Sequence record: PP430139.1
Source of the DNA: Enterobacteria phage FrBlood
Strand: one strand, 5' to 3'
DNA length: 3,546 nucleotides
A model generated the notes under the pieces. The model saw nothing but the letters and a program-made list of their open reading frames with translations, was not told where the DNA came from and did no database searches. A program made the position numbers and the translations under genes. Shown piece by piece: positions 1 to 3,546 of the stretch. Each line of letters opens with the position of its first letter. Within the stretch, counting starts at the first letter, position 1.

Positions 1-16
1 GACCCCTTTCGGGGTC
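1..16 (+). promoter_or_regulatory. 5'-terminal stable hairpin (stem GACCCC/GGGGUC, loop UUUC)
   Basis: Seen in sequence: positions 1-6 gacccc are the perfect reverse complement of 11-16 ggggtc, with a 4-nt loop tttc. Corresponds to the known 5' hairpin of MS2-group RNA; probably clipped by a few nt at the window edge. Confidence 0.75.
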
Positions 17-23
17 CTGCTCA

Positions 24-30
24 ACTTCCT
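24..30 (+). promoter_or_regulatory. Upstream complementary sequence (UCS) able to pair with the maturation-gene Shine-Dalgarno
   Basis: Seen in sequence: ACUUCCU (24-30) pairs antiparallel with AGGAGGU (110-116) over 7 positions (6 Watson-Crick plus one G-U). This matches the long-distance SD-UCS interaction described for MS2 that limits A-protein translation to nascent RNA. Confidence 0.65.
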
Positions 31-109
31 GTCGAGCTAATGCCATTTTTAATGTCTTTAGCGAGACGCTACCATGGCTATCGCTGTAGGTAGCCGGAAT
101 TCCATTCCT

Positions 110-116
110 AGGAGGT
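110..116 (+). promoter_or_regulatory. Shine-Dalgarno sequence of the maturation protein gene (AGGAGGU)
   Basis: Seen in sequence: aggaggt sits 7 nt upstream of the ATG at 124; a strong match to the anti-SD of 16S rRNA. Confidence 0.85.
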
Positions 117-123
117 TTGACTC

Positions 124-1305
124 ATGCGAGCTTTTAGCGCCCTTGAGAAGGAATCTGAAACCTTTGTTCCGAACGTCCGCGTTTACGCTGACGGTCAGAC
201 TGAGGATAATTCATTTTCCCTTAAATATCGTTCGAACTGGACCCCTGGTCGTTTTAATTCGACTGGGGCCAGGACGAAACAGTGGCACTATCCGTCCCCC
301 TACTCGAGGGGCGCGCTTAGTGTCACATCAATAGATCAAGGTGCCTATAAGCGCTCTGGGTCATCGTGGGGTCGCCCGTACGAGGAGAAAGCCGGTTTTG
401 GCTTCTCGCTCGACGCACGCTCCTGCTACGGCCTCTTCCCTGTTAGTCAGAACTTGACTTACATCGAAGTGCCGCAGAACGTTGCGAATCGGGCGTCGAC
501 TGAAGTCCTGCAAAAGGTGACCCAAGGTAACTTTAACCTTGGTGTTGCCTTAGCAGAGGCGAGGTCGACAGCCTCACAACTCGCGACGCAAACCATTGCG
601 CTCGTGAAGGCGTACACTGCCGCTCGTCGCGGCAATTGGCGCCAGGCGCTCCGCTACCTTGCCCTAAACGAAGATCGAAAATTTCGATCAAAACACGTGG
701 CCGACAGGTGGTTGGAGTTGCAGTTCGGCTGGCTACCGCTAATGAGCGATATCCGGGGCGCATATGAGATGCTTACGAAGGTTCACCTTCAAGAGTTTCT
801 TCCTATGAGAGCCGTACGGCAAGTGGGCACTAACGTTAGGTTAGATGGTCGCCTGTCGTATCCAGCTGCAAACTACCAGACTACGTGCAACATATCGCGA
901 CGAATCGTGATATGGTTTTACATAAACGATGCACGTTTGGCCTGGTTGTCGTCTCTAGGTATCTTGAACCCACTAGGTATAGTGTGGGAAAAGGTGCCTT
1001 TCTCATTCGTTGTCGACTGGCTCCTTCCTGTTGGGAACATGCTCGAGGGCCTTACGGCTCCCGTAGGATGCTCCTACATGTCTGGAACAGTTACTGACGT
1101 AATAACGGGTGAGTCCATCATAAGCGTCGACGCTCCCTATGGGTGGACAGTGGAGAGACAGGGCACTGCTAAGGCCCAGATCTCAGCCATGCATCGAGGC
1201 GTGCAATCCGTATGGCCAACAACTGGCACATACGTGAAATCACCTTTCTCGATGGTCCATACCTTAGACGCGTTGGCATTAATTAGGCAACGGCTCTCAA
1301 GATAG
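124..1305 (+). CDS. mat: Maturation (A / assembly) protein, the F-pilus attachment protein of ssRNA coliphages
   Basis: 393-aa ORF (MRAFSALEKESETFVP...IRQRLSR), ATG 124-126, stop TAG 1303-1305. Same length as, and by recollection about 96% identical to, the MS2 A protein. First gene in the conserved levivirus order and preceded by a strong SD. Confidence 0.97.
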   Translation: MRAFSALEKESETFVPNVRVYADGQTEDNSFSLKYRSNWTPGRFNSTGARTKQWHYPSPYSRGALSVTSIDQGAYKRSGSSWGRPYEEKAGFGFSLDARSCYGLFPVSQNLTYIEVPQNVANRASTEVLQKVTQGNFNLGVALAEARSTASQLATQTIALVKAYTAARRGNWRQALRYLALNEDRKFRSKHVADRWLELQFGWLPLMSDIRGAYEMLTKVHLQEFLPMRAVRQVGTNVRLDGRLSYPAANYQTTCNISRRIVIWFYINDARLAWLSSLGILNPLGIVWEKVPFSFVVDWLLPVGNMLEGLTAPVGCSYMSGTVTDVITGESIISVDAPYGWTVERQGTAKAQISAMHRGVQSVWPTTGTYVKSPFSMVHTLDALALIRQRLSR

Positions 1306-1721: not shown

Positions 1722-1899
1722 TAGATTCCGGCCATTCCAACATGAGGATTACCCATGTCGAAGACAACAAAGAAGTTCAACTCTTTATGTATTGATCTTC
1801 CTCGCGATCTTTCTCTCGAAATTTACCAATCAATTGCTTCTGTCGCTACTGGAAGCGGTAATCCGCACAGTAGAGACTTTACAGCAATTGCTTACCTAA
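1672..1899 (+). CDS. lys: Lysis protein L, a small membrane protein encoded in the +1 frame across the coat/replicase junction
   Basis: 75-aa ORF (METRSPQQSQQTPESTNRFRPFQHEDYPCRRQQRSSTLYVLIFLAIFLSKFTNQLLLSLLEAVIRTVETLQQLLT). Basic N-terminal half, hydrophobic C-terminal segment with the LS-dipeptide region (LLLSLL). Starts inside the coat gene and ends inside the replicase gene, exactly the MS2 arrangement; same length as MS2 L. Confidence 0.93.
   Translation: METRSPQQSQQTPESTNRFRPFQHEDYPCRRQQRSSTLYVLIFLAIFLSKFTNQLLLSLLEAVIRTVETLQQLLT
1740..1758 (+). promoter_or_regulatory. Coat-protein-binding translational operator hairpin (TR / MS2 hairpin) covering the replicase SD and start codon
   Basis: Seen in sequence: ACAUGAGGAUUACCCAUGU, i.e. 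stem ACAUG/CAUGU with a bulged purine and loop AUUA. This is the canonical wild-type MS2 operator (U at loop position -5). The replicase AUG (1755-1757) lies in the 3' arm and the SD GAGGA in the 5' arm. Confidence 0.95.
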
Positions 1900-3392
1900 G
1901 GGACGAGTTGCTTACTAAGCACCCGTCTCTAGGAAATGGTAATGACGAGGCGACCCGCCGGGCTTTAGCTATCGCTAAGCTCCGGGAGGCGAATGAACGG
2001 TGTGGCCAGATTAACAGAGAAGGTTTCTTACACGACAAATCCTTGTCGTGGGATCCGGATGTTTTACAAACCAGCATCCGTAGCCTTATTGGCAACCTTC
2101 TCTCTGGCTACCGTTCGTCGTTGTTTGGGCAATGCACGTTCTCCAACGGTGCCTCAATGGGGCACAAGTTGCAGGATGCAGCGCCTTACAAGAAGTTCGC
2201 TGAACAAGCAACCGTTACCCCCCGCGCTCTGAGAGCGGCACTACTGGTCCGAGACCAGTGCGTGCCGTGGATCAGACACGCGGTCCGCTATAACGAGTCA
2301 TATAAATTTAGGCTCGTTGTAGGGAACGGAGTGTTCACAGTTCCGAAGAATAATAAAATAGATCGGGCTGCCTGTAAGGAGCCCGATATGAATATGTACC
2401 TCCAGAAAGGAGTTGGCGCCTTTATAAGACGTCGCCTCAAGTCTGTCGGTATAGACCTGAATGATCAAACGATCAACCAGCGTCTGGCTCAGCAGGGTAG
2501 CGTAGATGGCTCATTAGCTACGATAGATTTATCGTCGGCTTCTGACTCCATCTCCGATCGCCTGGTGTGGAGTTTCCTCCCACCTGAGCTATATTCATAT
2601 CTCGATCGTATCCGCTCCCACTACGGGATCGTAGATGGTGAGACGATACGATGGGAACTATTTTCCACAATGGGGAATGGGTTTACTTTTGAACTAGAGT
2701 CCATGATATTTTGGGCGATAGTAAAAGCTACCCAGATCCATTTTGGTAACGCCGGAACCATAGGCATCTACGGGGACGATATTATATGTCCCAGTGAGAT
2801 TGCACCCCGTGTGCTAGAGGCACTTGCCTACTACGGTTTTAAACCGAATCTTCGTAAAACGTTCGTGTCAGGGCTCTTTCGTGAGAGCTGTGGCGCGCAC
2901 TTTTACCGTGGTGTCGATGTCAAACCGTTTTACATCAAGAAGCCAGTTGACAATCTCTTCTCCCTTATGCTGATCATGAATCGGCTTAGGGGGTGGGGAG
3001 TTGTCGGAGGTATGTCAGATCCGCGCCTTTATAAGGTTTGGGTACGACTGTCCTCCCTGGTTCCATCGATGTTCTTCGGTGGGACGGACCTTGCCGCCGA
3101 CTACTACGTAGTTAGCCCCCCAAACGCCGTCTCAGTTTATACTAAGACTGCATACGGGAAGCTACTCGCGGATGCCCGTACCTCGGGTTTCCGTCTTGCT
3201 CGTATCGCGAAAGAGCGAAAGCACTTTAGCGAAAAGCATGACAGTGGTCGCTACATCGCATGGTTCCATACTGGAGGTGAGATCACCGACAGTATGAAGT
3301 CCGCTGGCGTACGCGTAATGCGTACTTCGGAGTGGCTGACGCCGGTTCCCACATTCCCTCAGGAATGTGGGCCAGCGAGCTCTCCTCGGTAG
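1755..3392 (+). CDS. rep: RNA-dependent RNA polymerase (replicase beta subunit)
   Basis: 545-aa ORF (MSKTTKKFNSLCIDL...ECGPASSPR), stop TAG 3390-3392. Contains the RdRp motif C YGDD (GTIGIYGDDIICP; codons at nt 2769-2780). Same length as, and by recollection highly similar to, MS2 replicase. Confidence 0.98.
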   Translation: MSKTTKKFNSLCIDLPRDLSLEIYQSIASVATGSGNPHSRDFTAIAYLRDELLTKHPSLGNGNDEATRRALAIAKLREANERCGQINREGFLHDKSLSWDPDVLQTSIRSLIGNLLSGYRSSLFGQCTFSNGASMGHKLQDAAPYKKFAEQATVTPRALRAALLVRDQCVPWIRHAVRYNESYKFRLVVGNGVFTVPKNNKIDRAACKEPDMNMYLQKGVGAFIRRRLKSVGIDLNDQTINQRLAQQGSVDGSLATIDLSSASDSISDRLVWSFLPPELYSYLDRIRSHYGIVDGETIRWELFSTMGNGFTFELESMIFWAIVKATQIHFGNAGTIGIYGDDIICPSEIAPRVLEALAYYGFKPNLRKTFVSGLFRESCGAHFYRGVDVKPFYIKKPVDNLFSLMLIMNRLRGWGVVGGMSDPRLYKVWVRLSSLVPSMFFGGTDLAADYYVVSPPNAVSVYTKTAYGKLLADARTSGFRLARIAKERKHFSEKHDSGRYIAWFHTGGEITDSMKSAGVRVMRTSEWLTPVPTFPQECGPASSPR

Positions 3393-3489: not shown

Positions 3490-3532
3490 AGGGACCTCCC
3501 CCTGAAGAGAGGACCCGGGATTCTCCCGATTT

Positions 3533-3546
3533 GGTAACTAGCTGCT
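3533..3546 (+). promoter_or_regulatory. 5' arm of the 3'-terminal hairpin (partner arm and terminal CCA lie outside the window)
   Basis: ggtaactagc (3533-3542) has no reverse complement downstream in the window. In complete MS2-group genomes it pairs with GCUAGUUACC, followed by the 3'-terminal ACCCA. Confidence 0.6.

Follow-up and report, generated by a model that had tools for sequence, protein, structure and literature searches.

The analyzed stretch of DNA (hereafter the window; 3,546 bases of the sequence record PP430139.1, Enterobacteria phage FrBlood) is a near-complete genome of Emesvirus zinderi, the MS2 group, and corresponds to nucleotides 7–3552 of MS2. The first six nucleotides (GGGUGG) and the last 17 nucleotides of a full genome are absent, position 1 of the window being position 7 of the genome. 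Four ORFs on the plus strand feature the levivirus gene order of a genome of approximately 3.57 kb: the maturation protein gene (124–1305; 393 codons), the coat gene (1329–1721), the overlapping lysis gene (1672–1899) and the replicase gene (1755–3392). At an offset of 6 nt, all four match annotated genes of FrHenna, MS2 and R17. The Rfam scan of the window identified the operator hairpin of the coat protein, located at the start of the replicase gene (RF02359; positions 1723–1758; score 60.6 bits, gathering threshold 40), as the sole curated family, and no curated model of the leader.

A megablast search of 50,697 phage records showed that FrHenna (PP430140) is 99.4% identical to the window across its full length. 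The full-window identity is 94.9% for DL16 and also for FrSaffron, 92.4% for R17 and 92.1% for the MS2 reference NC_001417, and MS2-group isolates other than FrHenna are generally 92–95% identical to the window (5–8% divergence). The MS2-like isolates FrHenna and FrSaffron came from Michael Baym and colleagues, and FrBlood is a third MS2-like phage named from the same source (PMC12169576). The window and FrHenna differ by 20 nucleotides, 19 of the differences being transitions, and by three amino acids: V87E and Q211R in the maturation protein and D36N in the replicase. The maturation protein has 14 amino acid differences from that of MS2 and two from that of FrHenna. The coat protein differs from that of MS2 at three residues (E77Q, S100D and E103A, with Met as residue 1) and the lysis protein at five (F5S, A14E, R19F, K23Q and T68E); both are the same as in FrHenna. 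All features of an Emesvirus zinderi genome and of an MS2-type maturation leader that could be tested are present in the window, but the one feature that sets MS2 sensu stricto apart, the CU context with a GUG initiator, is absent, the window having UC-AUG.

The maturation (A) protein gene starts with an AUG at 124–126, on the plus strand, 7 nt downstream of AGGAGGU, in the context gacTCATGcgagc; the counterpart in MS2 is gacCTGTGcgagc. This codon is the first possible initiator in frame after the preceding in-frame stop. The ORF at 124–1305 coincides with the maturation gene as annotated in FrHenna and MS2 (130–1311 in their coordinates), and the annotated maturation start is at the matching position in 13 related records. 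Positions 110–131 read AGGAGGTTTGACTCATGCGAGC, a 22-mer present once in the window. At the homologous site the MS2 reference NC_001417, the resequenced "ancestral" MS2 (GQ153927) and ST4 carry GACCTGTGCGAGC. Three adjacent bases differ from MS2, at positions 122 (C>T), 123 (T>C) and 124 (G>A), and these are the earliest differences from MS2 along the whole genome. A preliminary description of this DNA had set an ATG at 124–126 against a GUG in MS2; the former is confirmed by the sequence, the ORF and the annotation of the relatives, and the latter is found both in NC_001417 and in GQ153927.

The rest of the leader is the same as in MS2: window positions 1–121 are identical to MS2 7–127, and R17 is identical to MS2 over 1–127. 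Two of the 288 differences from MS2 fall into the 123-nt leader (both at 122–123) versus 39 in the following 200 nt, and nearly all leader columns are invariant across 12 isolates. All structural elements named here are on the plus strand. The 5' terminal hairpin (1–22; MS2 nt 7–28) is predicted to have 12 bp in FrHenna, MS2, R17 and the consensus. The metastable "kinetic trap" hairpin GCUC-AACUUCCU-GUCGAGC (19–37; MS2 nt 25–43, with the identical sequence) has the local fold ((((.((.....)).)))) at −6.5 kcal/mol. The UCS, AACUUCCU, at 23–30 is the 5' strand of a long-distance interaction, whose 3' strand is the Shine-Dalgarno (SD) region AGGAGGUU at 110–117. The arms of the leader cloverleaf, which is identical to that of MS2, occupy positions 31–67 (West), 68–94 (South) and 96–108 (East) in the consensus fold. 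The single-stranded linker UGACUCAU (118–125), unpaired in the consensus of 12 isolates, lies between the long-distance helix and a downstream hairpin (126–135 with 157–167), which is predicted by RNAalifold and begins at the G of the start codon.

The folds of nucleotides 1–145 of FrHenna (that is, the window plus six bases), MS2 and R17 have the same 5' hairpin, the same three arms and the same 8-bp helix. The cloverleaf is also recovered in the consensus that RNAalifold gives for 12 isolates, and the z-score of the FrHenna (and hence window) leader fold is −5.8. The UCS-SD helix is present in both the MFE and the consensus folds, and all eight of its pairs are invariant in the 12 isolates; for a helix invariant within the group, covariation adds nothing. 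The pairs of the downstream hairpin are kept in 12 of 12 isolates, several of them via one-sided changes (RNAalifold). Folding of the leader had been proposed as a check in the preliminary description, and in these predictions the SD-UCS helix, the cloverleaf and the trap hairpin are intact.

In MS2, the leader cloverleaf was structure-probed, and the UCS, a part of the metastable hairpin, whose composition has been described, is transiently sequestered during plus-strand synthesis (passages of the review PMC4615214). The same passages attribute the control of MS2 maturation protein synthesis to long-distance pairing and folding kinetics, with the codon unmentioned there. The full-text literature searched contained no statement on the GUG or on the R17 AUG versus the MS2 GUG. 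The earlier view that the output of the A-protein is deliberately kept low by a weak start codon together with SD-UCS pairing and a kinetic trap is therefore backed by these passages as regards the pairing and the trap, whereas the codon as a deliberate part of the control is unsourced. We propose that positions 110–126 are the maturation ribosome-binding site, consisting of the SD AGGAGGU, a 7-nt spacer and the AUG. At equilibrium the SD (110–117) would pair with the UCS (23–30), and on nascent plus strands the metastable hairpin (19–37) would delay this pairing. From the identity of the elements we infer that kinetic control, with translation from nascent, non-equilibrated RNA only, operates as in MS2.

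The leader also contains an out-of-frame ATG (accATGgct), which opens an 86-codon ORF at window positions 74–334, overlapping the maturation gene. Most likely this ORF is no gene: its ATG is situated in the paired stem of the South arm, has no upstream SD and is replaced by TTG in M12.

A chance test is inapplicable to the identity of one codon, and the relevant measure is its frequency among relatives. Three queries of 39 nt, each holding the variable bases at 27–29, were run against the 50,697 phage records; with its 28-base seed, megablast recovers only the exact variant of each query. The TC-ATG variant was found in ten records, all of them independent isolates: M12, JP501, J20, DL1, DL16, DL52, FrHenna, FrSaffron, LT898437 (German) and MT830620 (from Chinese stool). 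These ten have the gene order and the leader fold of the window, and the 39-nt ribosome-binding site, including GACUC-AUG, is identical in nine of them, DL1 matching at 36 of the 39 positions. The CT-ATG variant was found in one record, R17. The CT-GTG variant was found in 219 records; each bears the name Escherichia phage MS2, and most represent laboratory populations. No G>A reversion in the MS2 context was observed among these 219 MS2-lineage records, the CT-ATG query having matched R17 only. In the leader alignment, GTG is present only in the MS2 reference, the ancestral MS2 and ST4; the start of the more distant phage fr is annotated as "gtg start codon", and the start is ATG in GA and KU1, phages of group II. 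AUG is thus the majority state among independent isolates, and only fr and the laboratory lineage of MS2 have GUG.

The preliminary description had implied that the AUG is noteworthy and had suggested an alignment of the leaders. That alignment has AUG in R17 and M12 and GUG in MS2; R17, M12, JP501 and the field isolates all start with AUG, so that the refuting case named in that description, AUG in reference genomes of the MS2 group, is the one observed, and the implication is not supported. An artefact of sequencing, assembly or priming is hardly conceivable as the source of the AUG in the record: the site recurs in ten records under seven accession prefixes, and the records that were fetched list the USA, China or no country, the sole relevant point on the other side being the lack of the genome termini in the window. 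When IMG/VR and the JGI metagenome contigs were scanned for AGGAGGTTTGACNNRTGCGAGC, no new natural variants emerged. Its matches were MS2 itself (99.6% identical to the reference, with GTG) and three non-levivirus contigs, at positions 3525–3546, 11100–11121 (in a contig of 68,279 bases) and 3986–4007. The occurrences of AGGAGGTTTGACTCATGCGAGC or its one-dinucleotide variant in these large contigs were rejected as chance SD-plus-ATG matches with unrelated flanks.

An error in the MS2 reference is excluded as the origin of the GTG start, because GTG is carried by 219 records. A separate anomaly of the reference concerns codons 81–83 of the replicase gene (window 1993–2003; L011 2001–2009). Here NC_001417 has GGTGATCGC (Gly-Asp-Arg), GQ153927, ST4, R17 and M12 have GATCGGTGC or GATCGATGT (Asp-Arg-Cys), and Glu-Arg-Cys is encoded in the window and the other isolates. 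In NC_001417 this looks like a local error in the order of oligonucleotides in the 1970s reference.

Three further phages were compared with the window. MS2 (NC_001417 / V00642) shares with the window the SD, the spacing, the UCS, the cloverleaf and the kinetic-trap hairpin, but has CU-GUG where the window has UC-AUG, and this is a minority state among independent lineages. R17 resembles the window in having AUG and a leader identical through MS2 nt 127, but has CU, not UC, at −2 and −1. R17 has long been treated as interchangeable with MS2; its A-protein ribosome-binding site was reportedly sequenced by Steitz in 1969 with an AUG start, and we take the classic site to be ...AGGAGGUUUGACCUAUGCGAGCU... 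Phage fr is comparable at the level of the species group and the gene, but is ~74% identical at the nucleotide level and has a different SD context, gctagggagcctcgt GTG, with an explicit GUG start.

The direction of change was considered on a neighbor-joining tree of the maturation gene (15 sequences; start codon excluded; rooted on fr; no support values). One clade comprises DL16, J20, the German and Chinese isolates, DL1, FrSaffron, and the window with FrHenna, all of them CUC-AUG. The other is (JP501,(M12,(R17,MS2))), where JP501 and M12 have CUC-AUG, R17 has CCU-AUG and MS2 has CCU-GUG. The window groups with FrHenna and FrSaffron, away from MS2, and every tip of this tree except MS2 and the outgroup fr has AUG. 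The whole-genome identities agree with MS2 being nested beside R17. Since MS2 sits inside an AUG clade, the simplest history is that its GUG is derived: starting from an AUG ancestor, UC>CU would have occurred in the common stem of R17 and MS2, and A>G later in MS2 alone, the GUG of fr having been acquired independently. A GUG ancestor of the species would agree with the GUG of the outgroup, but costs one more change, three versus two once GA and KU1 are counted.

All three variable bases (122, 123 and 124) are in the 118–125 linker, the only unpaired linker in a stretch of 140 nt that otherwise hardly varies. Relaxed structural constraint in this linker would be a sufficient explanation for the clustering of variation there, as the predicted unpaired linker is where drift is least constrained. 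We infer that the variation between AUG and GUG is tolerated and is not an innovation in regulation. The preliminary description had raised a different possibility, that the neighboring changes compensate for the AUG through RNA structure, so that CU>UC would be a partner of G>A and would restore low expression. Some folds could be read in this way: in the 145-nt fold of FrHenna, compared to those of MS2 and R17, the UC context forms a 3-bp CUC/GAG mini-helix around AUGC (~1.5 kcal/mol), and a 200-nt fold of the window has CUCA paired with UGAG. Both helices are weak, however. The latter pairing requires the G at window position 147, which no isolate other than the window and FrHenna has, and the variable bases are unpaired in the consensus fold. 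Moreover, R17 combines AUG with the MS2-type CU, demonstrating that the changes are separable in nature, and in the tree UC>CU precedes A>G and is on a different branch. As R17 has AUG without the UC change, compensation is unsupported.

In silico swaps of UC or CU and AUG or GUG on the downstream sequences of the window, MS2 and R17 (twelve constructs) point in the same direction. The probability of the SD being unpaired is 0.05–0.13 in all twelve constructs, and ~0.05 in all variants with the downstream sequence of the window or R17. The probability of the start codon being unpaired (0.45 in the window, 0.28 in MS2 and 0.70 in R17) depends on the downstream background, and start-codon accessibility displays no compensating trend across the variants. 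The search of the whole genome alignment for a covarying partner of MS2 nt 128–130 found no antiparallel run; it found many compatible single columns, which shared ancestry would lead one to expect. Structural compensation thus finds no support in R17, the unpaired linker, the covariation search or the accessibility, and we consider it highly improbable.

A 4-bp hairpin at the start codon (MS2 130–133/143–146; window 124–127/137–140) was also considered as a candidate and rejected, 125 of 500 shuffled sequences doing as well. Its pairing reaches 95.8%, one change being two-sided, and the conserved hairpin downstream (126–135/157–167) competes with it. MS2 closes the hairpin with G-C and nine AUG isolates close it with A-U, and R17, the window and FrHenna have an A.C mismatch at the closing position; the MS2 change G145A, in the Thr6 codon, turns a U.G pair of this hairpin into U-A.

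The initiator could still influence the amount of the maturation protein. AUG phages may capture more ribosomes before the SD-UCS helix forms and hence produce more maturation protein per genome than MS2. On this reading, the GUG of MS2 would be a down-tuning specific to its lineage, perhaps an adaptation to the laboratory. Initiation from GUG and UUG in E. coli reporters reaches 10–100% of the AUG level (bioRxiv 10.1101/063800), so a somewhat better capture of ribosomes by AUG phages than by MS2 in the time before folding is complete is plausible. GUG is kept in 219 of 219 MS2-lineage records, and the missing reversion is a hint against plain neutrality of GUG in MS2; fr carries GUG independently. 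Against a higher output stands R17, which has AUG in an otherwise identical leader, and the review passages credit RNA folding with the codon unmentioned (PMC4615214). We therefore regard this reading as possible but doubtful, and even if it is true, the unusual phage is MS2 and not the window. A stronger version seems improbable to us. In it, the codon sets the level of the maturation protein, and the MS2 GUG is a co-adapted, lineage-specific down-tuning that arose with G145A (U.G to U-A), which together with G130-C146 would strengthen the 4-bp start-codon hairpin; wild AUG phages would then run the kinetic trap at a set-point other than that of the textbook strain from which the model was derived.

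In summary, positions 110–126 are, with high confidence, the maturation ribosome-binding site of an MS2-group phage, in which GACUC-AUG is the common and probably ancestral state, the GUG of MS2 is derived, is restricted to the laboratory lineage and followed a UC>CU change shared with R17, and control would be as in MS2. The AUG start is an already known, common polymorphism, and laboratory MS2 is the exception. The MS2 reference is unrepresentative of its own species at the maturation start, which by itself has little biological weight. Models of maturation control that are built on the GUG nevertheless call for caution, as R17, M12 and every sampled field isolate have AUG; the presence of AUG behind an identical leader in these phages argues that folding, and not the weakness of the codon, carries the control.
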